A DNA stretch of 35,456 nt. Origin: a virus. Location: positions 1 to 35,456 of the IMG/VR virus record IMGVR_UViG_3300045988_035653; one strand, 5' to 3'. How positions within the stretch are numbered: the first letter of the stretch is position 1; each line of letters opens with the position of its first letter. The position numbers were made by a program, and so were the translations under genes. This document shows positions 2,184-24,139 of the stretch, piece by piece. The notes under the pieces were generated by a model. It did no database searches. It was not told the origin of the DNA and saw nothing but the letters and a program-made list of their open reading frames with translations.

Positions 2184-3356
2184 CTAATCATTATTTGCGT
2201 ATCTCGGCCGGTATTTACGTATAAGATAGTCAACGCCGTAACGCACAGCGTCTAATGCATGATTATAAGCGTCTATCGGCTCGTTAGTGTACGTGTCCGT
2301 TAGGTTGTCCTTGACGTAAGTGTAATTGTCTACCTCGTCCAGTACGTTCGTGCTACGCTTCGTCACGAACAGGTTGAACTGCTTCACCTGCTGGATGCCC
2401 GCCCGGATGGATCCCTTTCCTTTGATGCATGGGATCGTGTTACAGCCTAGGCCCCTTAGCTCTATAATAGACTTCTGCTCCGCGTTGTCGCATACCGTAA
2501 TCGTCCGGTCCAGTCTTTCCGCCTTAAGCCGTTCGGCGATCGTGCGGTTTAACATCTTCGTCTCGTAGCATACCTCGTCTATGTACAGGTTCATGCCCCG
2601 CATGTAGATTTTGACGATAGCGGTCGGGTCGTTCTGAAAGCCAAAATCAAGCCCTGTAACGAACTTTACGTCCTCACCCGTTAAATCCTCTGGTAGACTA
2701 TCGATCGTCTCAATTTGGGGATATACGAGGCCTTCTAACCCGCCCGTCAGCCCTTCACCGTAGACGCGCCACCAATTAGCGTCCTTGGCGTTGCGCTCTA
2801 TGGCTTCTACCTGCTGCTTGGATAGGTACGGGTTATCCTTATAGGTCGAGTGGATCGTCACGTACTTGTCGCCTGTAAAGTCTGTCTCGCCCCAGAAACG
2901 CCGCACCGGGTTGAAGTCAATGATAACCTTAATCGTGGTACGCACGTCCAGCTGCCTGAATATCTCGCGGGGCACGCGCTGCGCCTCGTTGATGAACAAT
3001 ATGTCACGGGCCGGGCCATGAACCTTCGACGCGTTGTCACACCCGAAGAACTCGATGCACACGCCCGGCTTCACCGTGTAGATCAAGTCGGACTTGTTGA
3101 GGGCGTTATCGTCCCACACCCCTTCGTCTAACAACATATTCTGAAAGTCTCGGAACATACCACGCTTGACTGCCGGGAGCGTGTCGGTAACACACGAGAT
3201 CATAAGAGGCTCGGTGCTTTCGTTAGCAACCAAATAGAGGAGCTGTAACACGCTCCACGTCTTAGATGAACGCGTACCACCTTTGCTTGCTATACCTCTT
3301 ATATAGGGGTCGCAAAACGGCCCTATCATCTTGTTAAATACATAGGTGCAATTCAT
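2184..3356 (-). CDS. terL: Terminase large subunit (PBSX/Terminase_3-like)
   Basis: Walker A-like GGTRSSKTWS, Walker B-like ILFINEAQ, C-terminal RNaseH-like nuclease acidic motifs (LDFGFQNDPTAIV, CDNAEQKSI, HALDAVRY); TAATG overlap with the upstream gene. Confidence 0.9.
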   Translation of the reverse strand: MNCTYVFNKMIGPFCDPYIRGIASKGGTRSSKTWSVLQLLYLVANESTEPLMISCVTDTLPAVKRGMFRDFQNMLLDEGVWDDNALNKSDLIYTVKPGVCIEFFGCDNASKVHGPARDILFINEAQRVPREIFRQLDVRTTIKVIIDFNPVRRFWGETDFTGDKYVTIHSTYKDNPYLSKQQVEAIERNAKDANWWRVYGEGLTGGLEGLVYPQIETIDSLPEDLTGEDVKFVTGLDFGFQNDPTAIVKIYMRGMNLYIDEVCYETKMLNRTIAERLKAERLDRTITVCDNAEQKSIIELRGLGCNTIPCIKGKGSIRAGIQQVKQFNLFVTKRSTNVLDEVDNYTYVKDNLTDTYTNEPIDAYNHALDAVRYGVDYLIRKYRPRYANND

Positions 3357-4045
3357 TACTTATCATCCTCCTTGTGATTCTTTTTAAAGTTCTTAATCGA
3401 GCTAACCTTTGCACGTACTTTCGGGTCGGTTACGTTCACGGTCAAGCCGCCCTTGATGGCTTCGCCGTTAGACGTGTAGTCCATCTGCGTTTTAATGCCC
3501 CGTAGAGCACGAACGTAGTTAGCGTCGAACTGTCCCACCGTCGCACCTTGATCGAGGTCCTGTGCGATCGCTTCGCGTATCCTGTCGATCACTGCTATGA
3601 AGTCCGCGCATATCGTTAGATCGAACTCCTTGAGGTTCTCGGCGTATGTGGAGCGTCTAGTGCTTAAGTACGTGGGATTCGCCCCAAGAAACATGCAGAA
3701 CTCGCCCTCCGATTGAAGATGCTTCTTCGGCACTTCATAGAGCGTCCCAGCCATGTTACCGGACTTTACGGCCTCTTGTGTTATAACGGGTGTAGCCTCG
3801 CACCACGCCGAGTAAATCGCGTATGCCTCCCATAGCTCTTCCGGCTCCTGCCAAACAGGCGTTCTGCCGAAGTGCGCCGTAGCGATCTGGTAGCACTTGG
3901 TGTAGTTGAACGAATCCGCCAAGTACTTGGTGGTCGCGTATGTGGGAGCTAGTTTAAAGTGGGCGTAATCCGGCCTAACCTTCTCGGGCTTTGGCAGCTG
4001 CACCGCTTCCTTAGTTTCTATAATTTCTTTCTTCTTTATAGCCAT
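3356..4045 (-). CDS. Putative terminase small subunit (229 aa from MAIKKK; ORF open to an ATG at 4189)
   Basis: Sits immediately upstream of terL and is coupled to it. A -7 box TATTTTTG lies at 4068-4075 inside the longer ORF version. The ATG at 4189 falls in a conserved non-coding repeat, where the paralogous copy reads ATC. Confidence 0.5.
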   Translation of the reverse strand: MAIKKKEIIETKEAVQLPKPEKVRPDYAHFKLAPTYATTKYLADSFNYTKCYQIATAHFGRTPVWQEPEELWEAYAIYSAWCEATPVITQEAVKSGNMAGTLYEVPKKHLQSEGEFCMFLGANPTYLSTRRSTYAENLKEFDLTICADFIAVIDRIREAIAQDLDQGATVGQFDANYVRALRGIKTQMDYTSNGEAIKGGLTVNVTDPKVRAKVSSIKNFKKNHKEDDK

Positions 4046-4067
4046 ATAATTTTTATTTACAACTCTA

Positions 4068-4075
4068 CAAAAATA
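4068..4075 (-). promoter_or_regulatory. Candidate late promoter -7 box (TATTTTTG) upstream of terS
   Basis: Matches TAnnTTTG 23 nt upstream of the ATG at 4045; no well-spaced -33 TTTG (nearest has a 13-nt spacer). Confidence 0.35.
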
Positions 4076-4164
4076 CGCTTTTTCTGCCCAAATCGCCCCA
4101 TTTATGCCTACCAAAGTTGTCTTTCCGCCCCCAAACCCCGATGAACAGGGCGTTTCAGCCCAAT

Positions 4165-4178
4165 TGTCAACGATGAAA
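4165..4178 (+). repeat. 14-bp direct repeat tgtcaacgatgaaa (second copy 4444..4457)
   Basis: Exact identity read at both positions; abuts the left edge of AT-rich element A. Confidence 0.8.
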
Positions 4179-4388
4179 AGATAAAACATAGTTTCTCTAT
4201 TATATCTAAATTAAAAAATATCATAATTTTATTATACATTAATAACAATAGTATAATATAGTTAACTATATATTCTTCTTTTAATAGTTACTCTATACTA
4301 ATCATCTTTATATCTTTGACAAATACACTATATTACAGTATAAAGTACTATAAATAAGCAAGTTAAGTGTAAAAGAAACAAATTTTAA
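4178..4388. repeat. AT-rich intergenic element, copy A (homologous to 19230..19439)
   Basis: Conserved left end aagataa.a.atagtttc.ctatta. Conserved 87-bp right block 4302-4388 versus 19353-19439, 72/87 identical by hand alignment. The interior is almost pure A/T. Confidence 0.85.
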
Positions 4389-4443
4389 CCTTTTACATCA
4401 AAAACTTGAAAAGTGCGTTCTGCGTCTTGTGAGTGCGGTCAGC

Positions 4444-4475
4444 TGTCAACGATGAAATGGAGGTGTCAAGGATGG
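4444..4475 (+). promoter_or_regulatory. Tandem TGTCAA(C/G)GATG(A/G) sites spaced 20 bp
   Basis: tgtcaacgatgaaa at 4444 and tgtcaaggatgg at 4464; a further TGTCAA at 4491 and an inverted TTGACA at 4316. Confidence 0.4.
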
Positions 4476-4495
4476 TTTCGGCTACTTTTTTGTCA

Positions 4496-4530
4496 AAAAC
4501 ACGCTTTTTAGTTAAAATACCGTTAAAATC
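4496..4530 (+). repeat. Iteron-like repeat R1 (aaaacacgctttttagttaaa core)
   Basis: The 21-bp core is identical to 4622-4642; the flanking ccgtt(t)aa(c)aatc is similar. Confidence 0.8.
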
Positions 4531-4589
4531 AAGCTTTCTCTCTAAAAAGTTTTCTCTCACAAAGTTTTTTCCGAAGCGCGTTAAATTTT

Positions 4590-4606
4590 TTAACTAAAAA
4601 GCGCGT
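4590..4606 (-). repeat. Iteron-like repeat R3, inverted copy (ttaactaaaaagcgcgt)
   Basis: Its reverse complement acgcgctttttagttaa differs by 1 nt from the R1/R2 core; forms a 17-bp stem with 4626-4642. Confidence 0.75.
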
Positions 4607-4621
4607 TAACGATTTTATACG

Positions 4622-4655
4622 AAAACACGCTTTTTAGTTAAATCCGTTTAACAAT
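4622..4655 (+). repeat. Iteron-like repeat R2, overlapping the stop codon of the 179-aa gene
   Basis: The 21-bp core is identical to R1. Confidence 0.8.
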
Positions 4656-5187
4656 CCAAGTTATACAGAACCTTCCAATCGTCCAAAATATATTTACATC
4701 TCCACTTCGCGGCCCTCTCAATCGTTTTCCATGTCAGCGTCCTACGCTCTAAAACGTCAAGCGTCCTGCTACCGTCGCAGTACATATTGACCCGGTACAG
4801 CATTGACACTTCTATCCCGTTACGGTTCAGTTCCGTGTCCTTGCTCGGGTAGATCGGGCGTTCTATATCGTCATTCTCGTACGGCCCTACGCGCTTCTTG
4901 TCCTTGTCACGGTACAGCATATTCTCTACTGTCGGTATGCGTTCCGGGTCGGTCCGTGTGTTCCTGTCGTCCCGTACTTTACTAGCCGCGTATATTATAT
5001 CCCGAAGGGCTTGACAGAACAACGATGCGTTAACCATGTGAAACGGTTTACCCTTCACCTTGAGATACTTCACATTATTAGCTTCAAGCCAGTTGAAGAT
5101 GAAAAACGCGTGTAGATTATATAACTGTGCCATCTCTTCGATAACTAGAACTCGTCTCTGTTTCTTCTTAATATATGGTGTCGGCAT
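4648..5187 (-). CDS. Putative DNA-binding protein with N-terminal excisionase/MerR-like (HTH_17-type) motif, 179 aa
   Basis: VLVIEEMAQLYNLHAFFIFNWLEANNVKYLKVKGKPFHMV fits the HTH_17 pattern; last gene of the early block, abutting the iteron cluster. Confidence 0.55.
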   Translation of the reverse strand: MPTPYIKKKQRRVLVIEEMAQLYNLHAFFIFNWLEANNVKYLKVKGKPFHMVNASLFCQALRDIIYAASKVRDDRNTRTDPERIPTVENMLYRDKDKKRVGPYENDDIERPIYPSKDTELNRNGIEVSMLYRVNMYCDGSRTLDVLERRTLTWKTIERAAKWRCKYILDDWKVLYNLDC

Positions 5188-9294: not shown

Positions 9295-9333
9295 GATTCT
9301 AATTTTTAAATGATTTATTTCCTTTTGACATTT

Positions 9334-9364
9334 CAAAGATACGACTACTTATCGGACTACCAAA
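9334..9364 (-). promoter_or_regulatory. Bacteroidota-type promoter (TTTG-19 nt-TATCTTTG)
   Basis: The minus strand reads TTTGGTAGTCCGATAAGTAGTCGTATCTTTG; the 33-bp core 9314-9346 is identical to 11326-11358. Confidence 0.75.
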
Positions 9365-9409
9365 ATATAGGGCAAACTCTTAACTTTGATTTGCATTAAA
9401 CGCTCTTAG

Positions 9410-11305: not shown

Positions 11306-11345
11306 ATTCTTTAATTTTTAATTGGTTTATTTCCTTTTGACATTT

Positions 11346-11376
11346 CAAAGATACGACTTAATTACGAACTACCAAA
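11346..11376 (-). promoter_or_regulatory. Bacteroidota-type promoter (TTTG-19 nt-TATCTTTG), duplicate of the 9334..9364 cassette
   Basis: The minus strand reads TTTGGTAGTTCGTAATTAAGTCGTATCTTTG; leader nearly identical to the 9296-9333 leader. Confidence 0.75.
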
Positions 11377-11405
11377 ACTTTTCTCAAAAAACTTTAGTAT
11401 ATTAA

Positions 11406-11443
11406 CAAAAATAAAGTCTCGCGTATCACTACGAAAGACTTTT
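11406..11443 (-). terminator. Intrinsic terminator after the primase-helicase gene
   Basis: The minus strand reads AAAGTCTTTCGTAGTGATACGCGAGACTTT followed by ATTTTTG; 7-bp outer stem plus 4-bp inner stem. Confidence 0.6.
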
Positions 11444-11512
11444 TAACTGAAAAACCACCCTAAAAGTATTAACCTTAAAAATTAGAAAAGAAAGTATTGT
11501 TTTAATTCGGTA

Positions 11513-13903
11513 TCACAAAGATAGTAATTTTTTGCTTTCCTCGCTACCTTTACGGATATAAACTACTTGTCGGCCGTATAATTTAGTTCTATTTAACTTT
11601 CCTTTGTACCATCCGCCTAATTGTCTCATAGCCGCTGCAAGTTCGCGCCCTTTCGCACTTGAATAATCTTCTTTCCGGCGCCCCAAAGCATCTACCCAAA
11701 GCTCCATCAAACAGAACGTATTTTTTTGAACCGTCCCAACCTCTTCCAGCGATCCGGCCAGGAAGTCAGCGCGTTGTTGTTCGGTGCGGTCTTCATAGTC
11801 AGCCGGGAAAAGCGTATTTACATAGTTCTCTATAATACCTACTAGCGGGCTTTCTTCTGTAAATTCTTCACGTCCCTCGTTGGCGATCGCTTCAGCTTCG
11901 TCAGACAAAACAAGGCTTTCACCCAACATGTACAGCTCCATTGCTTCCGCCCAAAGTTGGTCTACCACTGCCTCGAAAGACTTTTCAAACAGCTTATGAG
12001 TGTTCTTGTTTGCGCGTACCTCGATAGGAAAGAAACGGCGGTTTCCGGTCTTGTCCTTCAAAAACTCATCGTCGTTTGTAGACCCGAAAAATACGCATTG
12101 TCTACGGTGTGTTTTTACCCGGCGGGCGTATGCGCTACGATATGTGTCTTCCCGCTTGCTTATGAAGTTCTTCGTGGCTTCCACGTCCGAACGGCGAAGG
12201 GCTGACAACTCGGCTAGCTCCACGATCCAGGCGTGTTGTATCGCTTCGTATGCTTTTTGCCCAGATACGTCGGTTAATGAGTCATTAAACCAACCTTTTG
12301 AAAGGGACTGTATAAGCGTGGACTTTCCCGCGCCCTGTCCTGAATACATAACCAGCGCCGTATCAAATTTTCGGCCCGGCTCGTAAACTCTAGTAACAGC
12401 TGCAACCAGCATTTTACGGAACGCTTCGGAAACGTATATGCTAGGCTCTGCGCCCATGTATTCAACTAAGAAATTATCAATACGTTTCACACCGTCCCAC
12501 CTTTGCGCCTCTAGATATTTTTTGATAGGATGGAAAGCATTTTCGCTGCAGACCTTTTCCAACGCGTCGTTTAATTTGCTGTCATTATAAATACCGTGCA
12601 AATCCTCTATACGTCCACGGATAATCGCTACGGCGGTATCGTCTAACATGTCGCCCTTCTTGATGTCTTTCGAGAAGAACGGAGTACGGGTGTACACAAT
12701 CGTGTCAAGAAACAAGTCGTATGCTAGCAGATCATTTAACAGCGGGTCGCACTTGAAGGCGTTAACAAAGTTGCGAACGGTACACAATTTATCACCCTTC
12801 TTATCCAAGTCCCAAACCAGCTCCGCGGCGGTCTGCGCGTCCCCTTTAACCTCGTCTGTGTACTCCGCGAAGTCGGCTAGATCATCGTCCACGGCTACCA
12901 TATCTTTAACGCACTCTTTATCGGCGCAAATTAGCTTGTTCATCTCGCGGGTGCTGTCTTCCTTACCCAGGTGCCCGAACTTGTGCACACGTACCAAATC
13001 ATAAGCATTATAAGCGTGTCCATCTCCGATCGGGTCGGTCGAGTGGTGCGAGAAGCATAGTACATCGTCGTACACAACTAGGCCGGCCGCGCCTGATCCA
13101 AGAGCGTAGGTATACCGTCCGTTGTCTACTTCTGTGTAAACGTCCGATAGATATTTCTCTATGGCTGCCGGGATCGTGTACGAGCGGCAAAACGCGCCTA
13201 CCAAGCCCTCTTTGTCTCTAGGGTCTTTTGCCATCTCTTTACTAATAACGGCACGGGTATCGCGTTCCGTATCGGAGTGGAATGCCCATTTGCGCACGTC
13301 GCGCCATTCTTCATTATCTCCGTACAAACCTATTAGATATTCCGCGCTGATCGGTTCGCCTTCGAACACTTCGAATAGTCCGGTTTGATCTTTGGAAAGG
13401 GATTGCCAGTACATCATGCGTTCCGGTTGAAATGTCGTTTTATCAAATAGATCGATACCTAACAACTCGGCTACTTTGCGCGCCGCGGCTTCGTACATAG
13501 TAACGTCTGTAACCTCTTCTTTGAAAGGCATGATAAGACGGTAACGGCGTGATCCGGGGCGGTCTGATCTAGTAGTATAAATAGCTGCTGCCACGCCCGG
13601 AAAACGATCCGCAAAATCGAACGGGAATAAATCATCTCCGAAGTCTACGTCTAATGTAATCATAGATCGGGACATAACGGCCTTCTTAAGGCGTTGCGCG
13701 CCAGACAACTCGCCAGCCATGAATCCGCCCACGTCCTTCAACGACGATTTAGCGGGCTTGTCCAGTCTATCGAACTCGCGTACCGTTTCGTTAGTGATAA
13801 CGGGCGTCCCTAGTCTTTCCAAAAATGCTTCCCAAGTCATACGTACGGCTTTCCACTTCAACGAAGCCGAAGAACCTGCAAGCGATAAGGTGTATTTTTC
13901 CAT
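11513..13903 (-). CDS. Primase-helicase: N-terminal AEP/prim-pol-like domain fused to a VirE-family P-loop NTPase
   Basis: SMITLDVDFGDD (DxD), central/C-terminal ALVMYSGQGAGKSTLIQSL Walker A, VIVELAEL Walker B-like; 796 aa. Confidence 0.85.
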   Translation of the reverse strand: MEKYTLSLAGSSASLKWKAVRMTWEAFLERLGTPVITNETVREFDRLDKPAKSSLKDVGGFMAGELSGAQRLKKAVMSRSMITLDVDFGDDLFPFDFADRFPGVAAAIYTTRSDRPGSRRYRLIMPFKEEVTDVTMYEAAARKVAELLGIDLFDKTTFQPERMMYWQSLSKDQTGLFEVFEGEPISAEYLIGLYGDNEEWRDVRKWAFHSDTERDTRAVISKEMAKDPRDKEGLVGAFCRSYTIPAAIEKYLSDVYTEVDNGRYTYALGSGAAGLVVYDDVLCFSHHSTDPIGDGHAYNAYDLVRVHKFGHLGKEDSTREMNKLICADKECVKDMVAVDDDLADFAEYTDEVKGDAQTAAELVWDLDKKGDKLCTVRNFVNAFKCDPLLNDLLAYDLFLDTIVYTRTPFFSKDIKKGDMLDDTAVAIIRGRIEDLHGIYNDSKLNDALEKVCSENAFHPIKKYLEAQRWDGVKRIDNFLVEYMGAEPSIYVSEAFRKMLVAAVTRVYEPGRKFDTALVMYSGQGAGKSTLIQSLSKGWFNDSLTDVSGQKAYEAIQHAWIVELAELSALRRSDVEATKNFISKREDTYRSAYARRVKTHRRQCVFFGSTNDDEFLKDKTGNRRFFPIEVRANKNTHKLFEKSFEAVVDQLWAEAMELYMLGESLVLSDEAEAIANEGREEFTEESPLVGIIENYVNTLFPADYEDRTEQQRADFLAGSLEEVGTVQKNTFCLMELWVDALGRRKEDYSSAKGRELAAAMRQLGGWYKGKLNRTKLYGRQVVYIRKGSEESKKLLSL

Positions 13904-13908
13904 GTTAA

Positions 13909-15909
13909 TTAATCTTTCTTATAATATTTACTAGTGAATCCTTCTGCCTTCAACGGAATACCGAAAGCATCCGCCCATTTTGGTGTAGCTGCCATAGCTT
14001 CGCAAATCTCACTTAGCGATACGGTCGGCTCGCCAAAAACATCTAGTGGTACCTCGTTTACCGTTTCGTCGTGAATATGTCCCACGATTTTAACAGCCGG
14101 GTAACGTTTTACAATCTCTTGCATGCCATACGCCAATAGGTCGCGGCTTACTGCCTGCGTGATATTCTCGGTTAGCTTTCCGCCGTACGTGTCTAGGTCG
14201 GCCCATTTTCCGGTAAGGTCTTGACCTTTGTACGTTATAACCTCCCTGTCTCGTCCGTGTACGCTTTTCGTAGCGATCCGGCAAAACGGATAAAACAAAC
14301 GACGGCCCGAAGGTAATAAAATTGCTAGAGAATTGTTTTCTTTAAACCATTGAAATGTACAAACGTGTACGCCGTACCGGATAACCTCCACGTCTTTCTT
14401 GTTACGAATACAGAGTTTAGCACGGCTGTCTAGGGCTTCCCAAAATTCAACTATGCGCGGAGAAGCGGCACGCCATCTCAATATAATATCCTTGTACAAC
14501 GCCGGGTCAATCGCCTTTTCATAGTCCATCGTAGACATAGCGCCCACCCAACCGCCATAGCCTAATGCAAGTTCGGTTACTTTACCCTGTTGGCGATAAT
14601 GAGTACCTTTTCCGCATTGATCCTCGGGCAAGCTAAATGTCATACTTGCAGACACTACGTATATATCTTTCCCGTTGCGGAATGCGTTGATACGCCAATC
14701 TTCACGACACAGGCACGCCAGTACGCGGGCTTCAATGGCCGAATAGTCGGCGACATGGAATGTAGTGCCCTCGGGGGCTACAAACGTTGTTCTGATAAGC
14801 TGCGATAACGTGTCAGGTACATTTCCCCAGAACAGTTCGAAGTCCTGCAAACCCATGTGCTTAACGTTATCACGTGCGCCGTCCAGGTCGTTTATATAGT
14901 TACGTGGTAGGTTCTGCATTTGGACAAGTCTACCGGCCCAACGTCCGGTACGGCCCGCGCCATAGAAACGGTACAAGCCGTGTACGCGTCCGTCGAAGCA
15001 CACGCAATTGCGCATCGCTGTATATTTGGCGTTGCTCGTCTTGTTTATGATCTTCCGGGCGTTCAAAACCTCGTCTACTCGTTCATTGTCGCACTCCTGC
15101 ATAATCTCCTCTATGCCCTCTTTGCGGAATGAATCGAAAGACTTTCCGGTATTGATTAGAACAAAGTCCTTAAGTTGCATTGTAGACTTAAGAGAGGATA
15201 TGCCGTACTTCGTCTTAATACGGTTTTTCAATTCGTTGCAAAATTCCTCGTTGAGAGCGTCCGCCCGTTCCGCTAGTTCCATGTCTACGGCGATACCGTT
15301 GTCGTTAATGTCTTGATCCAGTCTATACAGGTCTATTTCCGACTGTGGGAACTTACAATAGTCTAGGCGCGCCAGTACTTCACGTTCTGAAAGAATGTCG
15401 TAACGTAGGTAGTCTATAAATTCCTCCCATTTATCGGGATAATCTCTCGGATCATTCTGGTACCCTTCCGGGTCCGCTTTGGTCGGCTTCTGCGGTTGGC
15501 AGAAGAATTTTATAAGGGCTAGCCCTGTACCCTTCTTGCCCTCTTTCAAATCCAGCGCCTTAGAAAGGTTTCCCAGGCTCTCCGGGAATCCGGCGTATAA
15601 CGCCATAGTTGCGGTACACAGGAAACGTTCCGCCGGGATATTAGTGCCGTACGCCATTAAACACAACCGTTCAAACTGCGCGTTATGCGCCACGATCGTA
15701 TATTGCGTATCGAGAAGCAAGTTCACGAAGTCCGTAAACTGCTCGTAGGCATCTGATCTAGTCATATCAATAATATTAACGTCTCCGTCTTCGATCGCGT
15801 AACCGATAAGAAGTATCTCGAAGTCGGGCGATTGCGTGTATCTATACGCTCCGCCGCTCTTAATGTCCTCGCTGGAAAATGTTTCAAAATCTATATAAAT
15901 TGGTTTCAT
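13909..15909 (-). CDS. Family A DNA polymerase with 3'-5' exonuclease domain (666 aa from MKPIYIDFETF)
   Basis: Exo motifs IDFETFS, HNAQFERLCL, YLRYDILSE. Pol motifs ADYSAIEARVLA (A), RQQGKVTELALGYGG (B), HIHDETV (C). The GTG start at 15957 lies inside a hairpin. Confidence 0.92.
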   Translation of the reverse strand: MKPIYIDFETFSSEDIKSGGAYRYTQSPDFEILLIGYAIEDGDVNIIDMTRSDAYEQFTDFVNLLLDTQYTIVAHNAQFERLCLMAYGTNIPAERFLCTATMALYAGFPESLGNLSKALDLKEGKKGTGLALIKFFCQPQKPTKADPEGYQNDPRDYPDKWEEFIDYLRYDILSEREVLARLDYCKFPQSEIDLYRLDQDINDNGIAVDMELAERADALNEEFCNELKNRIKTKYGISSLKSTMQLKDFVLINTGKSFDSFRKEGIEEIMQECDNERVDEVLNARKIINKTSNAKYTAMRNCVCFDGRVHGLYRFYGAGRTGRWAGRLVQMQNLPRNYINDLDGARDNVKHMGLQDFELFWGNVPDTLSQLIRTTFVAPEGTTFHVADYSAIEARVLACLCREDWRINAFRNGKDIYVVSASMTFSLPEDQCGKGTHYRQQGKVTELALGYGGWVGAMSTMDYEKAIDPALYKDIILRWRAASPRIVEFWEALDSRAKLCIRNKKDVEVIRYGVHVCTFQWFKENNSLAILLPSGRRLFYPFCRIATKSVHGRDREVITYKGQDLTGKWADLDTYGGKLTENITQAVSRDLLAYGMQEIVKRYPAVKIVGHIHDETVNEVPLDVFGEPTVSLSEICEAMAATPKWADAFGIPLKAEGFTSKYYKKD

Positions 15910-15931
15910 GTTTTTAGGGGTTTTAAAAGTT

Positions 15932-15963
15932 AAAGCCGCGCCGCTTCTACTCGGCACGGCTTT
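15932..15963 (-). terminator. Strong GC hairpin (12-bp stem) between the SSB and polymerase genes; terminator/attenuator
   Basis: The minus strand reads AAAGCCGUGCCG-AGUAGAAG-CGGCGCGGCUUU then AACUUUU; one G-U pair. Confidence 0.65.
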
Positions 15964-16038
15964 GGAAAATCATTTTACACCTGTTTTAACGAGATTGATT
16001 AATAATTAATTTAATTGTTTATACTTGAAATAATTGTT

Positions 16039-16605
16039 TTAGTTGAAGTCTGCCAGACTGTCGTTTTCATCGCTCAAATCTTCGAAGTCGTTGACGCTTG
16101 ATCCGCCGTCCAGTCTATCATCATCGGTTACTTTCTGTATCCCGTTCAATCCGGCTGTGATACCGCGGTTGTCGGCGCTCATATTGTAACCGTAAATTGA
16201 GATGGAAGCTACTCCCCAAGAACCGGAATACATATCTTCCTTCACTGTGATCGGGCGTTTACCTTTGTCAATTACAATCGGTTGTCCATGTTCCTCTTTT
16301 CTTTTCGCTGTGATGTAATAACATCCTTCATACCCGGCTTGTCCTTCTTTCTCCGGCGCATCACCATCCCGTAACGGGCTTTTGTAATTTGCGGGTACTT
16401 GTCCCTTGAATTTCGGGTCTCTTGAAAAATAATCCTGCGCTTCTGCCTTAACCGCGTCATTGATTTGCTTAATCAAAGCCGTATCAGTTTTGGGGATCAA
16501 CAAAGTTACACTGTAATGATATTCACCTACGCCTTGATACTGTTCTGCCTCGAAAACTCTTACATAAGAGAAACGTACGTTTTTTAAGATCAATTTTCTA
16601 CTCAT
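16039..16605 (-). CDS. Single-stranded DNA-binding protein (DUF2815-like)
   Basis: N-terminus LILKNVRFSYVRVFEAEQY...YSVTLLIPK and acidic C-terminal tip DFEDLSDENDSLADFN; sits between the nuclease and polymerase genes, as in known DUF2800/DUF2815/PolA modules. Confidence 0.75.
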   Translation of the reverse strand: MSRKLILKNVRFSYVRVFEAEQYQGVGEYHYSVTLLIPKTDTALIKQINDAVKAEAQDYFSRDPKFKGQVPANYKSPLRDGDAPEKEGQAGYEGCYYITAKRKEEHGQPIVIDKGKRPITVKEDMYSGSWGVASISIYGYNMSADNRGITAGLNGIQKVTDDDRLDGGSSVNDFEDLSDENDSLADFN

Positions 16606-16645: not shown

Positions 16646-16675
16646 CAAAGATATTGCTTTATTTTAAACTTCAAA
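16646..16675 (-). promoter_or_regulatory. Bacteroidota-type promoter upstream of the SSB gene (TTTG-18 nt-TATCTTTG)
   Basis: The minus strand reads TTTGAAGTTTAAAATAAAGCAATATCTTTG, 41 nt from the ATG at 16605. Confidence 0.7.
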
Positions 16676-16711: not shown

Positions 16712-17875
16712 TTAGCCTTCGATGTCAAAGTCGCATAGCGGGCTATACTCCACACCCTTAGCGGATTCCGGTACTAGTTTCGGCGCGCCGGGTCGTGATT
16801 CGATCGCGTCTCCAAATCTCGCGCTAAACACTTTTTTACCCAACAGTTTTTCAAGATCGCCAATACCTTTTAGCTTGATGTTTAGTACCTCGTCCTCTAG
16901 GAACTCGTTTAGGAGTGCTTGGCGTATCTTTGCCTCGTCCTTGATAACTCGGCTTGACCGTCCGGCTACTAACTTGTAGCCCTCCCATTTATGCCCCTGT
17001 ATTGCTCTATCGTAAACGTACTTATTAACTGATTCGATCCAGCTCTTATACGTGCCGATCTTACCGATAAGGTCGGTTACTTCTTCGTCAGACAATAGAA
17101 GAGGCTCGGGCTTTTCGTCGAAGTCTGCAAGTATGGCATCCCGTTGCGCCCTGCATTGGGCCTTAACCGGACAAAATCCGCACCAATTCCCAATAACCTG
17201 TTTTCCTTTGCCCTGTATTGCTGCTTTTGCGGCCGGTTTCAGGACTTTTTCCGCCCAGTCGAGTAATTCACCCTTCGACATCTCAAACGTGTCGTAGTGG
17301 TCTAATCTGACTTGTGCTATTGTCATTCGGATATTGGTTATGACCTTTGATGCCGCCGCCTTCAAAGCTCCCAAAGCATATAACATCATTTGTTCGTTGT
17401 GATCAGCGGTCACCTTAACGCCGGCGCCGTACTTCAAATCTATAATGTGTATCGTCTTGTCAGATACTAGTGTTACGTCTACCGATCCGAACGAATCCGG
17501 CGCGTAATCGGTAATGTCTACTTTACGCTCTAGGAACATTTCGCTTAACCCGTCTGCTTTCTGCATCTCGTAATTTTCACCGATAATGTAATCGCAATAA
17601 TCGCGAATGTAATTTGCCATGTCAATACTAAACAGCGGGTTTTTAAGGTGTTCATCCTTGATTGGCAGGGCTTCGTCTATGATCGGATCATATATGCCTT
17701 CTAGGTATTGGGTCAAAGCGTGTTCGGCTATTTCGTGGGCTAGTGTGCCCTCTTCGGCGTAAACGCTTGACTTGCTTCCGGCAGCTTCCGCTAGTAGCGC
17801 CGATGGAGTACAATGAATCCATCGTTTCGCGCTACTCGGCGATAAAATCGCGTGGTCTCTATCTGCGTGTCCCAT
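16712..17875 (-). CDS. PD-(D/E)XK nuclease, DUF2800/Cas4-like with Cys cluster
   Basis: N-terminal HAILSPSSAKRWIHCTPS, IIDLKYG core, CGFCPVKAQC cysteine cluster. Confidence 0.8.
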   Translation of the reverse strand: MGHADRDHAILSPSSAKRWIHCTPSALLAEAAGSKSSVYAEEGTLAHEIAEHALTQYLEGIYDPIIDEALPIKDEHLKNPLFSIDMANYIRDYCDYIIGENYEMQKADGLSEMFLERKVDITDYAPDSFGSVDVTLVSDKTIHIIDLKYGAGVKVTADHNEQMMLYALGALKAAASKVITNIRMTIAQVRLDHYDTFEMSKGELLDWAEKVLKPAAKAAIQGKGKQVIGNWCGFCPVKAQCRAQRDAILADFDEKPEPLLLSDEEVTDLIGKIGTYKSWIESVNKYVYDRAIQGHKWEGYKLVAGRSSRVIKDEAKIRQALLNEFLEDEVLNIKLKGIGDLEKLLGKKVFSARFGDAIESRPGAPKLVPESAKGVEYSPLCDFDIEG

Positions 17876-18477
17876 TATAGACGGCTTGAAATGTATGCAA
17901 CAAAATCGCTAAACATCTCTTCCTTCAACGTCGGGAAACTAGACGCGCCTACGCTTTCAAAAGCTTCCTGTACAATCGGGCGTTTCTTAGCGTTTAGAGC
18001 CTTCATAGCCCAGGACTTACAGTCGTCGATAGTATAAGACGCTGCATCCGTTTTAGGTTCTGCTGGTGCAGGCTCTTCAACCTTTGCAGGCTCTTCTGCT
18101 GGTGCAGGCTCTGCTGCTGGTGCTGGCTCTTCTGCTGGTGCAGGTGCTTCTGCTGGTGCAGGTGCTTCTGCTGGTGCAGGTGCTTCTGCTGGTGCAGGCT
18201 CTTCGATCGGTGCAGGCTCTTCTGCTGGTGCAGGCTTCGCGGCTCGTTTAGCACGGGTCTTGGCGCGTTCAGATTCTACGATCTCGGCCACTGTTTTAGG
18301 CTTCTCTTCGCTCTTCACCTTTGTTGCTTCTACAACTTCATCCGCCAACTTGTCAAGATCGGTTTTACGTTCCGTTACTTCCGGTATGGCTTCGCCCGCC
18401 AATTCGCGCAAATAGATAGACGTTGCTAACAAAAATTCTCTACTCTCATTTCCGATTAATTCGATTACTACTTTCAT
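17875..18477 (-). CDS. Pro/Ala/Glu-repeat linker protein with folded N- and C-terminal ends, 200 aa
   Basis: Ten in-phase 18-bp units encode (E/A)(E/A)PAPA; coupled to both neighbours. Confidence 0.75.
   Translation of the reverse strand: MKVVIELIGNESREFLLATSIYLRELAGEAIPEVTERKTDLDKLADEVVEATKVKSEEKPKTVAEIVESERAKTRAKRAAKPAPAEEPAPIEEPAPAEAPAPAEAPAPAEAPAPAEEPAPAAEPAPAEEPAKVEEPAPAEPKTDAASYTIDDCKSWAMKALNAKKRPIVQEAFESVGASSFPTLKEEMFSDFVAYISSRL
18061..18240. repeat. Tandem 18-bp repeat array (10 units, 3 perfect: tgctggtgcaggtgcttc at 18133-18186)
   Basis: Counted directly; in frame within the 17875..18477 CDS. Confidence 0.9.
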
Positions 18478-18653
18478 TTTTTCTTAAAATTAAAAATTGT
18501 TTCTAATAGTTCATTTTTGCTCACTCTGATTCTGCCCGTCCCATTCTCGTACCGGGTGAGTTTTCCGGCGTTGAGCTGGTAGCGTATTGCGTTTTCGGTG
18601 CACTCCGCTAACCGGGCGGCTTCCGCCACTGTGATAAGTTCTACTTTTTCCAT
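18474..18653 (-). CDS. Small excisionase/MerR-like HTH DNA-binding protein, 59 aa (below ORF-track cutoff)
   Basis: Hand translation MEKVELITVAEAARLAECTENAIRYQLNAGKLTRYENGTGRIRVSKNELLETIFNFKKK; its TGA overlaps the ATG of the next gene. Confidence 0.6.
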   Translation of the reverse strand: MEKVELITVAEAARLAECTENAIRYQLNAGKLTRYENGTGRIRVSKNELLETIFNFKKK

Positions 18654-18967
18654 TTCATCTTTTCGTTAAATTTAAAATTCAATTTGTCAGACGTTCGATA
18701 AGTTTGTACGTGATCGGAATAAGCGGCGCGCCGGGCTTGCTCGAAAATAGTTTCGTAACGTTTGGCGTGTGGAATTATAAAGCCCTGGATTTTATACTTA
18801 AACTTTTTTCCGGCTTCTTCTTCTCGTTGCAAGTATTCGAACACCATTTTCGAACTGCCCGGATAGCCGTATAGCATTGTAGCCTCGCCTATAGTTTTGC
18901 ACGCCGTAATCCTTTCCCGTATAATCTTATAAAAGAACGCTTCTAACTTATAAATGTCTATTGCCAT
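18641..18967 (-). CDS. Hypothetical early protein, 108 aa (first gene after the early promoter)
   Basis: ATG-initiated; 77 nt downstream of the promoter -7 box. Confidence 0.7.
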   Translation of the reverse strand: MAIDIYKLEAFFYKIIRERITACKTIGEATMLYGYPGSSKMVFEYLQREEEAGKKFKYKIQGFIIPHAKRYETIFEQARRAAYSDHVQTYRTSDKLNFKFNEKMKWKK

Positions 18968-19043
18968 ATCTAGTAATGTTTATTACGATTCTCCGATCTC
19001 GGAATAGTTCAACAAATTTAGTTGGTTTCTCATTTCGATGTTA

Positions 19044-19073
19044 CAAAGGTACAGCTTTATTTTGAACTACAAA
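19044..19073 (-). promoter_or_regulatory. Bacteroidota-type early promoter (TTTG-18 nt-TACCTTTG)
   Basis: The minus strand reads TTTGTAGTTCAAAATAAAGCTGTACCTTTG; the spacer resembles the SSB promoter (AAAATAAAGC). Confidence 0.65.
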
Positions 19074-19229
19074 ACTATTTCCCAAAAAACTTTAGTAATT
19101 TAACTCTGATTAACTGTTTTGAAGGTTTGATAACAGTGTCAATGAAGAATAGCCCTTTTTCAACGTATGTTTCCACCCTTAACTGCGTGCGTATCAGTTA
19201 GTTAAGTGGCAAAAACGGGTGAAGTGTCT

Positions 19230-19439
19230 AAGATAAGAGATAGTTTCCCTATTAGTTTATATTTAAATATTTCTATAAATTCATTCACATATTAATTCAT
19301 ATATTTACATATTTTATAGATTATATTACTATTTCATTCTTATCTCTATATAACATCTTTCCATCTTTGACAAATGATATATATTATATGATAAAGTACT
19401 ATAAATAAGCGAGTTAGGTGTGATAGATACAAATTTTAA
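19230..19439. repeat. AT-rich intergenic element, copy B (homologous to 4178..4388)
   Basis: Same conserved ends and same length (210 versus 211 bp) as copy A. Confidence 0.85.
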
Positions 19440-19452
19440 TCATTCACAAGCA

Positions 19453-19483
19453 AAAACGCCAACTCGTTAAGAATCAGCGTTTT
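19453..19483 (-). terminator. Weak hairpin AAAACGC-17 nt-GCGTTTT after the lysis cassette
   Basis: 7-bp stem about 50 nt downstream of the stop at 19534, followed by a U-rich tract on the minus strand. Confidence 0.3.
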
Positions 19484-19533
19484 AAGTTTTCAAGTGTGAA
19501 AGATGGAAGTGCATTTATAAAAGATGAAAAGCA

Positions 19534-20121
19534 TTATTTGTCGAATTCTGCCGAAAATTTTACATGTATTTTAGATTTCGGGTTTTTATTCGATACGGTT
19601 ATCGTTTGTTTCGGTTTTCCGATCCGGAAGAATAAAAATCTCTTTTGTTTTACTGATCCGATCACGTCGATCGTGTCGATACTGCTAGATTTTATAATTG
19701 TAGTGTCTGGTTTGGATTCAACTTGTATATCATTCCACCCATCGAAATAGTGCGCAAATCGGTTTTCTTTGTTCCCGTCCCGGTATTCTGTCTTAACCAC
19801 GGTGTCCACCTTGGTAACTGTCTCGGCGCGTGTCGCATTCTTTAATTCCCTTATCTTTATTCCCGCCTCGCGTACCTTATTATATAGATCGGCGTTATAT
19901 AGTTCCAGCTCGTCCTTCTCTAGTTTTAACTGCCTAGCCTGTTCCGCATAATCGCCCGCCGTAGTCTTGAACGCTACGGCCTCGGTGTTAAGCGCGGTGA
20001 GGTTGTTTTCCTGCCTTTCTAGCTCTTTTCTCTGCTTTTGTACTGTCTTGTACGATGCATACAACAAAATGGCAAGAAGGACCGCTAAACACACCAATAT
20101 CTTATCTAATGTTATTTTCAT
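19534..20121 (-). CDS. Membrane-anchored coiled-coil protein, spanin-like lysis accessory (function tentative)
   Basis: N-terminal helix ILVCLAVLLAILLYASY, heptad-rich segment; ATGA-coupled to the endolysin gene. Confidence 0.6.
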   Translation of the reverse strand: MKITLDKILVCLAVLLAILLYASYKTVQKQRKELERQENNLTALNTEAVAFKTTAGDYAEQARQLKLEKDELELYNADLYNKVREAGIKIRELKNATRAETVTKVDTVVKTEYRDGNKENRFAHYFDGWNDIQVESKPDTTIIKSSSIDTIDVIGSVKQKRFLFFRIGKPKQTITVSNKNPKSKIHVKFSAEFDK

Positions 20122-20516
20122 AGGTGCAGTATTTGACGTTTCACGTTGTTCTTATCGTATGAGATATGCACCCATGAAAAATTCTTCTCATCGATAAGCT
20201 GGCAATACGGTAAATTGAGTTTTTGCGCCAGTTCAAAGAGTTTCTTGTTCTCCTGTTTGCTTCCCGCTGTAATGTCCGCCGCTTGTCCCTTCATGTGCTG
20301 CGACGTTTTAGAGCCTTTCACCGCCGCGTTTAGGACGGGCGATCTGTACCCGCTATTAACTCGGATCGGTTTGCCGTACGCGTCCCGTAATGGGTCTAGC
20401 ACGTTATTGACTAGCTGTTTCAGATTCTCCGCTGCTTCCGGTGTCGGATCGTTGTTGATCTTCTTCGCCGCCGCTGTCGTTGACGCGGTTAGCTCTTGGA
20501 TTGTGAAGTTTCGCAT
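20118..20516 (-). CDS. Endolysin, peptidase M15 (VanY/M15_3-like L-alanyl-D-glutamate or D-Ala-D-Ala peptidase)
   Basis: SGYRSPVLNAAVKGSKTSQHMKGQAADI (H-x6-D zinc ligands) and WVHISY. Confidence 0.85.
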   Translation of the reverse strand: MRNFTIQELTASTTAAAKKINNDPTPEAAENLKQLVNNVLDPLRDAYGKPIRVNSGYRSPVLNAAVKGSKTSQHMKGQAADITAGSKQENKKLFELAQKLNLPYCQLIDEKNFSWVHISYDKNNVKRQILHL

Positions 20517-20934
20517 TTTTCAAATTTTTTATAAAGTCCGAATATTTAGTATTAATCAGTATATCCAGTACAGCGATAAATTCGTTATCCGGTTGGATCT
20601 TTTTAAAGTTACGAATAATATTCTTAGAATACACCAGCGCGAAAAGCGTTGTAAGTAATCGTAATAAGTCCGTATAGTTCCCTGCCGGCTCAATAAGCCG
20701 TGCGGCTGCTGCTGTGAATAGAATCACGATCGCCGCGATAGCGTACTCAAAGAAGGCGTGGAAAGCCTTTTTATGGCTGTATTTTTCACCGGCCCTTAAA
20801 CCCGCGATAAGTCCTACTATGAAATTTAATGTGCCGAATAAGATTATAAGGACGAAGAAAGTCATCACATCGTTAGTAACTGTTAGCAAGAAAGCTAGAG
20901 ACGCGACACGCGCCGTATCAAAAACTCCATCCAT
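20404..20934 (-). CDS. Holin-like multi-pass membrane protein (176 aa from MDGVFD; ORF open to 20976)
   Basis: 3-4 hydrophobic helices, FIVGLIAGLRAGEKYSHKK motif, charged C-terminal tail; TAATG coupling at 20934. Confidence 0.6.
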   Translation of the reverse strand: MDGVFDTARVASLAFLLTVTNDVMTFFVLIILFGTLNFIVGLIAGLRAGEKYSHKKAFHAFFEYAIAAIVILFTAAAARLIEPAGNYTDLLRLLTTLFALVYSKNIIRNFKKIQPDNEFIAVLDILINTKYSDFIKNLKNAKLHNPRANRVNDSGGEEDQQRSDTGSSGESETASQ

Positions 20935-21371
20935 TATTTTATCAAACATATCCGTGATTGTACCCTGTGTGAACATTCCTCTTTAATCAGTCCGGCGGTT
21001 TTAAACGCCTTGATTAACGGGACTATAAATAAATCAGCTTTTCCGCGTTCCGCCTCAAAACGCCTCGCTTTGTTATCATCGGCTAGAACGTAGCTGCCGC
21101 CATAGTTTTGTATTTTTAGGCCGCTCGCCGTGCTCTGCTGCTCGCTTGTCTGCAAGTAGCGCGCAAAGGCATAGTAGCATAATACTTTATTAGCTCCTGT
21201 ACGCGCCGGTGTATCACCTAGGTATTCCGGCGGTATCTCTTCATACGATCGTTTGAGCTGCGGCGACATGTCGAGCATATCGGCTTCATAAAAAGCTTTT
21301 TCGATGTCGCTATCTTTAACGTCCTTTGCGATCGTAAACAAATCTCGTAGTAATTGGATCGGGTATGCCAT
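20934..21371 (-). CDS. Hypothetical virion-module protein, 145 aa
   Basis: ATG-initiated, between the portal and holin genes. Confidence 0.7.
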   Translation of the reverse strand: MAYPIQLLRDLFTIAKDVKDSDIEKAFYEADMLDMSPQLKRSYEEIPPEYLGDTPARTGANKVLCYYAFARYLQTSEQQSTASGLKIQNYGGSYVLADDNKARRFEAERGKADLFIVPLIKAFKTAGLIKEECSHRVQSRICLIK

Positions 21372-23605: not shown

Positions 23606-24139
23606 TTATGATTCTGTTACGATCGCCGCGGCTCTCAATGTGTTATAACTAGCATCCGCAAAGCTTAGACGGGTCTCGCCGATAACATTTTCCGATGTGG
23701 ATAACGTGATGGTAGTAAAACCGCCGTTCGCGTTCATATCCTCCGAAATAGCAGTAGCGCCCAAACCATAATTATACCCGTATGCCCGAATTCTTCCGGC
23801 TTTAGTTTTGACAAGTGCCAGGAACGTACCGTTTAAAATCTGATTTACAATCACAGTTCCGTTTGCGTCTCCCTGATACAGTGTGAACGTAACCGCCTGC
23901 GTCAATGCTGTTGGCGCGTTGTCGTTCTCCTTGATTTCTTCCGTGGCGTTTACACCCTTCTTGTTACTCTCAACCAACACGGCTTTAGCGCCAGCGGCTA
24001 ACGTTATAGTAGCAACCCCGGCTGCTATACTCTTTGACGCAATATCGGCAAAATTGATAAGAAGCATTTCGGCTACGCCTGTCGCCCCTCCGTCGCAATC
24101 AACTAAGATCGCCTTATTTAATTTATTTAAGCATCCCAT
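23606..24139 (-). CDS. Paralogous 180-aa structural protein, copy 2 (177 aa from MGCLNKL)
   Basis: The ATG at 24139 lies 1 nt after the copy-1 stop; aligns with copy 1 at LNKAI, AEM.LINF, ITL..GAK, FTLY, GGFTT.T, IGE.R. Confidence 0.8.
   Translation of the reverse strand: MGCLNKLNKAILVDCDGGATGVAEMLLINFADIASKSIAAGVATITLAAGAKAVLVESNKKGVNATEEIKENDNAPTALTQAVTFTLYQGDANGTVIVNQILNGTFLALVKTKAGRIRAYGYNYGLGATAISEDMNANGGFTTITLSTSENVIGETRLSFADASYNTLRAAAIVTES

Follow-up and report, generated by a model that had tools for sequence, protein, structure and literature searches.

What function could be served by two long, AT-rich and mutually homologous intergenic elements in a phage genome that is otherwise packed with overlapping genes? 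This question is raised by the IMG/VR virus record IMGVR_UViG_3300045988_035653, a stretch of 35,456 nucleotides (positions 1 to 35,456) that was analyzed in full and is referred to here as the window. Its first and last 55 nt are identical, which makes it a circular contig of 35,401 bp, and it is a circular Bacteroides ovatus phage of ~35.4 kb, with 19 cultured siphophages of Bacteroides ovatus, koreensis and kribbi as its closest relatives. Every long open reading frame (ORF) of the window lies on the minus strand, and only two stretches free of minus-strand ORFs are longer than 207 bp: gap A (4046-4647), which separates the last early gene (4648-5187) from terS (start at 4045), and gap B (18968-19533), which separates the last gene of the lysis cassette (19534-20121) from the first early gene (18641-18967). 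Each of these gaps, which together amount to 1.17 kb, harbors one copy of the element, designated copy A and copy B. We propose, with a probability of roughly 0.55, that these twin elements are a pair of iteron-type origins of replication, or an origin and an auxiliary site, that depend on the phage primase-helicase, a homolog of the Rep initiators of staphylococcal pathogenicity islands (SaPIs) that is designated Pri-Rep. The basis for this proposal is restricted to anatomy, homology and comparative evidence.

Architecture of the twin elements

A first-pass annotation, made from the letters of the window, had described 4178-4388 and 19230-19439 as homologous non-coding elements located at the two operon boundaries, in the only two long intergenic regions of the genome. 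Both the coordinates and the placement proved right. The pair is recovered by local alignment of one gap against the other, which matches 4178-4405 with 19230-19457 (228 nt each) at a Smith-Waterman score of 161, as compared to 26 on average and at most 41 for shuffled sequences and 29 for the reverse complement, and also by a repeat search, which pairs 4292-4404 with 19343-19455 at 78% identity. The left bounds hold, but the homology continues for ~17 nt further to the right than had been annotated. A distance of 15,051 bp separates the copies, which have a motif in common. The right block of 87 bp is identical at 72 of 87 positions without gaps (4302-4388 versus 19353-19439), just as had been described, and the common left end (aagataa.a.atagtttc.ctatta) is present in the alignment of the copies. 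The interior is indeed almost purely A/T, with 13-14% GC over 110 nt in each copy, and the 200-nt windows holding the two cores are the two lowest in GC content of the genome (0.175 and 0.22). What had escaped notice is that the conserved ends themselves are copies of one repeated motif of 10 nt.

This motif, referred to as the iteron, is strongly concentrated in the two gaps. Allowing for at most one mismatch, TGTMAANGATGRA has 9 matches in the genome versus 0.52 expected, a number reached in none of 100 shuffles, and 7 of these 9 matches fall in gaps A and B; for the strict pattern TGT[AC]AAnGA[TA], all 7 genomic matches do. When degenerate instances are included, copy A contains at least 7 iterons and copy B at least 7. 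The flanking iterons belong to the unit, and the functional unit is therefore wider than the aligned sequence, extending over ~4165-4476 and ~19137-19528. Its parts are the following:

4165-4184, plus strand: left iterons of copy A, TGTCAACGATGAA at 4165-4177 and the degenerate GAAAAGATAA at 4175-4184, both facing the AT-rich core
4188-4203, plus strand: box L of copy A, ATAGTTTCTCTATTAT, a TTTC(C)CTATA box that reads TA.AGGGAAA in gene sense
4199-4302, no strand: AT-rich core of copy A, overlapped by the lowest-GC 110-nt window (4176-4285; 13% GC, with 10 C and 4 G on the plus strand)
4303-4321, minus strand: adjacent inverted iterons of copy A, CATCTTTAT and ATCTTTGACA, reading TGTCAAAGAT on the minus strand and given as atctttgacaaat in the first-pass annotation
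4339-4367, plus strand: box R of copy A, TATAAAGTACTATAAATAAGCAAGTTAAG
4368-4397, no strand: inverted iteron pair of copy A, TGTAAAAGAA and CTTTTACA separated by 12 nt
4444-4476, plus strand: direct iterons of copy A, TGTCAACGATGAA and TGTCAAGGATGGT, 20 bp apart
19137-19149, plus strand: outlying left iteron of copy B, TGTCAATGAAGAA
19225-19243, plus strand: left iterons of copy B, TGTCTAAGAT and the degenerate AAGAGATAG
19240-19255, plus strand: box L of copy B, ATAGTTTCCCTATTAG
19256-19353, no strand: AT-rich core of copy B, covered by the lowest-GC 110-nt window (19250-19359; 14% GC, with 13 C and 2 G on the plus strand)
19354-19372, minus strand: adjacent inverted iterons of copy B, CATCTTTCC and ATCTTTGACA, reading TGTCAAAGATGGA on the minus strand
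19390-19418, plus strand: box R of copy B, GATAAAGTACTATAAATAAGCGAGTTAGG
19419-19448, no strand: inverted iteron pair of copy B, TGTGATAGAT and CATTCACA separated by 12 nt, with a double change from A-T to G-C relative to copy A
19495-19528, plus strand: direct iterons of copy B, TGTGAAAGATGGA and TATAAAAGATGAA, 21 bp apart

Read along the plus strand, both copies present one or two forward iterons, box L (TTTC(C)CTAT), an AT-rich core of ~100 nt in which C greatly outnumbers G, adjacent reverse iterons (CATCTTTnn and ATCTTTGACA), the strongly conserved box R (TATAAAGTACTATAAATAAGCnAGTTAGG), the inverted pair TGTAAAAG-N14-CTTTTACA and, ~45 nt beyond the latter, two forward iterons spaced 20-21 bp apart. 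The core, a putative DNA-unwinding element, is thus flanked by adjacent iteron pairs that face each other (4165-4184 forward and 4303-4321 reverse in copy A; 19225-19243 and 19354-19372 in copy B). The second iteron of the left pair is degenerate in the window phage and clean in a relative with an 87% identical primase-helicase (L246), the tandem iterons of which allowed the degenerate GAAAAGATAA to be recognized. With two forward GTAAAAGATG, an AT core of ~110 bp and two reverse GTAAAAGATG, L246 shows the cleanest layout of all. Among close relatives, the least variable stretch lies in the core of copy B (19280-19319, nucleotide diversity 0.031), and the box R region of copy A (4320-4359) has a diversity of 0.068, the minimum of gap A, matched only by 4480-4519 (0.064); the iteron positions are the variable parts, with a nucleotide diversity of ~0.2.

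Other repeats are specific to copy A or to its gap. The core of copy A contains a perfect 14-bp palindrome, TATAGTTAACTATA (4258-4271), that is kept in copy A of the relatives and is absent from copy B. The part of gap A that is not common with gap B (4487-4642) has repeats of its own, namely three instances of AACACGCTTTTTAGTTAAA (4498-4517, 4588-4607 in inverted orientation and 4624-4642), which constitute inverted repeats of 19-20 bp, and two adjacent copies of TTCTCTC..AAAGTTT (4536-4568); in the distantly related phage BC679P1, a similar motif, CTCTCAAA, occurs five times in gap A and once in gap B. These gap A-specific repeats could be a terminator, pac or TerS sites, or sites for a late regulator.

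Conservation of the pair among related phages

Conservation in relatives, which the first-pass annotation had put forward as a check on its functional interpretation, was found throughout: all 19 GenBank relatives present two places matching the element, and ~30 contigs of IMG/VR contain it. Of 80 IMG/VR loci retrieved via their primase-helicase, about two dozen contain both gaps in complete form and yield A-B alignment scores of 48-296, with the exception of two loci (L238 and L239). The pair was also examined in six more distant phages (BC679P1, BF1-3, SJC25, BU241P2, BV674P5 and PM682P3), which encode primase-helicases 38-69% identical to that of the window and have the same gene layout. 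The A-B pair is present in the same two gaps, with scores of 320 in BC679P1, 75 in BF1-3, 82 in SJC25, 268 in BU241P2, 211 in BV674P5 and 33 in PM682P3, compared with shuffle maxima of 24-33. Apart from short boxes, the elements of these lineages cannot be aligned with those of the window, and their iterons are lineage-specific: the gaps hold 9 of the 12 genomic copies of ATCTATCC in BF1-3 and 10 of 12 in SJC25, 7 of the 8 copies of ATGCACAG in BU241P2, and every one of the 8 copies of GTCGGAAC in BV674P5.

A pair at the same two junctions was also identified in Croceibacter phage P2559Y, a marine phage of Flavobacteriia with a 39% identical primase-helicase. Its A-B score is 180 versus a shuffle maximum of 35, and 14 of the 19 copies of TAAACAAT are located at the junctions:

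42739-43153 plus 1-239, and 23622-23951: twin elements of P2559Y, before terS and after the lysis genes, respectively, with TAAACAAT as iteron

The pairing is therefore an old trait that extends beyond gut phages. All lineages keep the AT core and, at its edge, box L (TA.AGGGAAA in gene sense); most of them also have a box R of CTATAA..AGC.AGTTAG type, and the spacing from box to box ranges from 100 to 170 nt. The first-pass annotation had reasoned that the conservation of 87 bp in non-coding DNA implies a sequence-specific function, and we judge this to be right.

The two copies do not evolve independently. Within genomes, A-B scores amount to 75-320 in six lineages and to 33 in PM682P3, whereas elements at the same junction in different lineages score 13-40, which is background. 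Likeness within a genome thus greatly exceeds likeness at the same junction between lineages, as in concerted evolution. Over short distances the pattern is reversed: between BF1-3 and SJC25 the A-A score is 232 and the A-B score 70, the same-junction copies being more alike. The copies are, then, homogenized at intervals, or re-duplicated, or held to the specificity of a common protein. Their duplication at the two transcription-unit junctions and their homogenization suggest that both copies are needed and that one protein reads them.

Some similarities in the same regions are of another kind. The A-B matches of L238 and L239 come from a different leader repeat and were rejected as twin elements, and a similarity directly after the primase-helicase gene in L238-L240, considered as a possible origin copy at that place, is likewise due to a different leader or promoter repeat. 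In L238, units of GAAAGGGAAAG..TGAAAAGTGAAAGGGA occur in gap B and after pri-rep (3088-3214, 12708-12832), and in SJC25 repeats of ~120 nt lie downstream of early promoters, with three tandem copies in gap B (20488-21332). Not related to the iteron elements, these ~120-nt repeats may act as RNA elements of the 5' leader or antitermination type.

The candidate initiator and known origins

The protein proposed to read the iterons is encoded between the two gaps:

11513-13903, minus strand: Pri-Rep gene (796 aa), with an N-terminal primase region, a VapE-type helicase and a fast-evolving C-terminal stretch of 85 residues; proposed iteron-binding initiator

Pri-Rep contains a Pfam VapE-like domain (1.4e-75), its N-terminus has primase-type PHROG matches, and residues 386-711 match SaPI1 Rep1 (PDB 7PDS) with E = 2.4e-72. 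The identity of the last 85 residues, compared to that of the rest of the protein, is 0.95 versus 0.96/0.98 and 0.75 versus 0.87/0.90 and, in farther relatives, 0.58 versus 0.72/0.79 and 0.51 versus 0.72/0.74. This C-terminal region consequently diverges fastest at every distance, as would be expected of a specificity domain. From these observations we infer the following course of initiation. The variable C-terminal domain of Pri-Rep would bind the copies of the ~10-nt motif (TGT[A/C]AAnGAT) that lie on both sides of the 100-nt core of 13-14% GC and converge on it in pairs; Pri-Rep would assemble on both flanks, melt the AT core, load itself and prime synthesis. The two copies may be two firing origins or a cooperating pair comparable to ori and crr of phage P4.

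The closest known counterpart is found in the SaPIs, the Reps of which are self-loading helicase-initiators with a C-terminal winged helix that reads iterons of 5-6 nt (PMC9371898). The SaPI origin comprises 6-12 iterons and an AT-rich center, with at least two iterons per side in opposite orientation, and in SaPI5 pri and rep are fused (PMC9371898). The twin elements resemble this design in their several short iterons, central AT-rich region and at least two opposed iterons per side, and the proteins resemble each other as VapE-type helicase initiators with an upstream primase and a variable C-terminus that go together with lineage-specific iterons. The first-pass annotation had been unable to assign the elements to a known class, which no longer holds, as their anatomy fits the iteron origins of SaPI Rep type. 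Among the candidates that it had listed, duplicated origins or unwinding elements with a binding platform for a phage protein are favored, and small RNAs are unsupported. There are nonetheless clear differences. The SaPI origin is single and located directly 3' of rep, whereas the phage has two copies, ~5 and ~7 kb from pri-rep, at transcription-unit junctions; the phage iterons measure ~10 nt instead of 5-6 nt; the phage elements add conserved boxes at the core edge (TTTCCCTATA and CTATAAATAAGC.AGTTAG); and the phage is a lytic-type siphophage of a Bacteroidota host, not a satellite. Since neither copy adjoins pri-rep, the elements are better termed a Rep-type origin-like variant than plain members of the SaPI origin class.

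An independent comparison is offered by Enterococcus phage AE4_2, which encodes a full-length, 37% identical homolog of Pri-Rep. The 330-bp gap directly after its pri-rep (14660-14990) contains 12 of the 27 genomic GGATAC sites, arranged in tandem pairs in both orientations, the last two of which bracket a TATATA-rich core of ~70 bp; this is the only such cluster in AE4_2. In position and design the array, which is unannotated in the record, is a candidate SaPI-like origin, and no description of it was found in the literature searched. It shares with the twin elements the tandem iteron pairs in opposite orientation around an AT core, and differs from them in being a single element that adjoins pri-rep in a temperate phage of Firmicutes.

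Iteron origins of plasmids and lambdoid phages (RK2 oriV, lambda ori) are similar in combining iterons and an AT-rich unwinding element with an initiator encoded by the replicon. Their iterons, however, measure 17-22 bp and mostly form direct repeats that lie to one side of the unwinding element, and such origins depend on the host DnaA, DnaB and DnaC, with lambda ori lying inside the O gene. Phage P4 reportedly needs both ori and crr. The twin elements resemble this system in that two separated cis elements carry the same iteron and would be read, as proposed here, by one multifunctional protein composed of primase, helicase and a putative C-terminal winged helix; the domain order of the P4 alpha protein is primase, helicase and winged helix (PMC2777425). 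The P4 protein differs in having a DnaG-type primase and a superfamily 3 helicase, and ori and crr are unlike each other in structure, whereas the phage copies are near-replicas that evolve in concert.

Several observations weigh against Pri-Rep-dependent origins. Neither copy adjoins pri-rep, one lying ~5.3 kb upstream and the other ~7 kb downstream of the gene, and no iterons were found in the gap that follows it (11306-11512), which holds a promoter-family repeat only. The AlphaFold2 model of residues 552-796, built on a shallow alignment, has a mean predicted local distance difference test (pLDDT) score of 50; its last ~60 residues reach 70-76 in a strand-helix-helix-strand-strand arrangement, and its top Foldseek matches are mostly winged-helix domains, including plasmid Rep initiators and subunits of the origin recognition complex, none of them significant (E of at least 0.1). 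A fragment query with the Pri-Rep C-terminal domain yielded 10 fragments only and no match to a solved structure. Across 8 genomes, the first early protein, the helix-turn-helix (HTH) protein, the Pri-Rep C-terminal domain, the last early protein and TerS diverge together, so that covariation could not single out Pri-Rep, and a 59-aa HTH_17 protein and the 179-aa last early protein are plausible alternative binders. A location at both operon junctions would be expected of a transcriptional element as well. Finally, cumulative GC skew over the whole genome falls steadily without an inflection at either copy; given that all genes are co-oriented, this is uninformative.

A more specific and distinctly doubtful version of the proposal is that the copies form an obligatory, non-redundant pair that Pri-Rep loops together, as a symmetrical version of P4 ori and crr. 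Such a loop would split the circle into two domains, early and late, and would link the firing of the origin to the point where one transcription unit stops and the next starts; recurrent gene conversion would keep the copies matched to the fast-evolving recognition domain, and the primase would start at the TA.AGGGAAA box, which all lineages have at the edge of the core.

Transcription units, alternative explanations and implications

The positions of the copies must be read against the gene order, which was taken from the annotation of the relative BO1. On the gene strand, the late block runs from terS and terL through tail and head genes, portal and lysis genes to gap B; there follow the HTH protein, a DUF2800 nuclease, a DUF2815 single-strand-binding protein, PolA, the primase-helicase, VRR-NUC, an SNF2 helicase and methylases, and then gap A and terS again. 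Canonical Bacteroides promoters (TTTG, ~19 nt, TAnnTTTG) were located on the minus strand at 19051, 16653, 11353 and 9341, with a weaker instance at 4075, and the early promoter is thus an element in its own right, ~180 bp from copy B. The canonical promoters lie in a family of repeats (30-75 nt; 9320-9394, 11332-11406, 19030-19104 and 16646-16675, all on the minus strand), each of which has the two boxes at a spacing of 18-19 nt and the start codon of the next gene close behind. These repeats look like promoters of early and middle genes and constitute a family separate from the twin elements. The TAttTTTG box at 4075-4068 precedes the likely terS start at 4045; a mechanically called ORF (3356-4189, minus strand) has its start within the left end of copy A. 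Two annotated genes of BO1, terS (15520-16287) and one for a hypothetical protein of 34 aa (16284-16388), reach into the equivalent of gap A, and both the terS extension and the 34-aa ORF are probably over-calls. A scan of gaps A and B for terminators found none; a weak hairpin (AAAACGC-N17-GCGTTTT, 19453-19483), present in copy B only, may end the late operon. Elsewhere, 18022-18270 comprises at least ten tandem units of 18 nt that encode a (P/E)APAE(E/A) repeat within an early protein of 200 aa (ORF 17875-18477, minus strand). Most relatives' GenBank records start inside the matching repeat, which suggests that these starts are assembly breaks, and they were discarded as indications of DNA termini. 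The window was found to contain neither tRNA nor tmRNA genes.

It is conceivable, if on balance unlikely, that the iteron arrays are instead operators for a phage transcription regulator, such as the HTH_17 protein of 59 aa or the last early protein of 179 aa, with the AT core as a bendable spacer; such a regulator would act at both junctions, for example by shutting off early genes and activating or insulating the late operon. Both copies lie at the transition from one transcription unit to the next, and Bacteroides-type -7 boxes (4075-4068 and 19051-19044, gene strand) follow 100-180 bp downstream of them. The late promoter, its -33 element being poor, could require an activator, and the phage codes for small Xis/MerR-like HTH proteins. 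The distance from element to promoter, however, is unequal between the copies (~105 versus ~180 bp) and varies among lineages. The 179-aa protein, whose gene immediately precedes copy A, has an N-terminus that is similar, though not significantly so (probability 0.82-0.85, E 0.4-0.7), to those of BldC and RacA, both of which bind cooperatively to arrays of repeats. The gene that takes the corresponding place before terS in AE4_2 carries a sigma-factor annotation; in the same phage, on the other hand, the iteron design is found directly after pri-rep, away from an operon junction. Lineage-specific motifs would suit any co-evolving DNA-binding protein, but a core of 100-130 bp and 13-14% GC between converging motif pairs is usual for an origin and not for an operator, and the conserved block is devoid of a canonical Bacteroides promoter on either strand. 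The elements were rejected as promoters of the Bacteroides primary sigma factor (-33 TTTG, -7 TAnnTTTG): the sole TAnnTTTG inside the element (4311-4318, plus strand) is without a -33 TTTG and is not conserved, reading CATCTTTG in copy B and CATCTTTT in the copy A consensus. A match to the TTGACA-17-TATAAA promoter on the plus strand of copy A was also rejected, as its second box reads GATAAA in copy B and the consensus is not used by Bacteroides. Origin and operator functions are in any case compatible, and transcription that stops and resumes beside an origin could activate or protect it. As side observations on the 179-aa protein (4648-5187, minus strand), it has no Pfam or PHROG match and varies to an unusual degree within the B. 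ovatus phage clade (64-94% identity, 108 homologs); its AlphaFold2 model (pLDDT 71) combines an N-terminal domain like the MerR-like winged HTH of BldC and RacA with a four-stranded beta domain, and its gene occupies the same place just before terS as the sigma-factor gene of AE4_2.

The remaining explanations were rejected along with the promoters. Binding of the elements by the small terminase as pac sites would agree with the location of copy A directly upstream of terS, the classical place for pac, and with a TerS of P22 gp3/headful type; the pac region of SPP1, for instance, is composed of bendable DNA surrounded by repeated boxes to which TerS binds. Yet copy B, 15 kb away beside the early genes, shows a conservation no less strict than that of copy A in any lineage and would constitute a second pac without evident use, and the gap A-specific repeats (4498-4642, 4536-4568) are better candidates. 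With copy B far from terS and repeats of its own in gap A, a pac role is very improbable. The chances are just as slim for the right block being a small RNA or a cis-acting RNA of the antiterminator type (lambda nut or HK022 put), one per operon, even though twin elements at two operon heads recall nutL/nutR and putL/putR. The 8-bp hairpin TGTAAAAG-N14-CTTTTACA is kept in 82.7% of alignment cells and includes one covarying pair (AU, CG, GC, GU), with a covariation score of 0.060 versus 0.030 for shuffles that was reached by 4 of 500 of them; its arms, however, are two inverted iteron copies, and the covariation is therefore equally expected for paired protein sites. Rfam was searched over the whole window with gathering thresholds and, more permissively (E up to 1), over both gaps, and neither search returned a match within the twin elements; the permissive search gave only sub-threshold microRNA-type hairpins at 4467-4654, almost wholly outside the twin element, and none in gap B. 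RNAalifold yields virtually no consensus structure (-0.1 kcal/mol on the plus strand and -5.7 on the minus strand), the elements lie upstream and not downstream of the mapped promoter motifs, and both the variation in spacing (100-170 nt) and the unalignable sequences between lineages argue against an RNA. Hardly credible, lastly, is that the copies are alike by chance, as AT-rich DNA, or that they represent a mobile element akin to a miniature inverted-repeat transposable element flanked by target-site duplications. Copy A does lie between the two halves of a perfect direct repeat of 13 nt (TGTCAACGATGAA, at 4165 and 4444), but the equivalent repeats flanking copy B are not identical and TGTCAACGATGAA is one of many iteron copies. 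In every lineage, the gut Bacteroides phages and the marine Croceibacter phage alike, the elements are found at the same pair of syntenic sites; the bacterial genome collection yielded no related copy, with 5 exact 19-mer matches of which only one (L252) had a BLAST match, of 25 nt; and the similarity between the copies is far above shuffled controls.

The 35-38-kb siphophages of this family are among the most frequently isolated and assembled phages of Bacteroides, Phocaeicola and Parabacteroides from the human gut, and no prior description of origins, regulatory DNA or elements of this kind in these Bacteroides phages was found in the literature searched. If the twin elements are Rep-type origins, they would provide concrete origin coordinates for the whole phage family and extend the self-loading helicase model of SaPI origins from Firmicutes satellites to phages of Bacteroidota. 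They would also document an unusual arrangement, in which two origin-like copies sit at the only two transcription-unit junctions and are kept alike within genomes while their motif shifts between lineages. The elements are candidates for use in phage-based vectors for Bacteroides and in phage engineering, and the lineage-specific motifs, together with the C-terminal domain of the initiator, could predict replication incompatibility or cross-activation between co-infecting phages.

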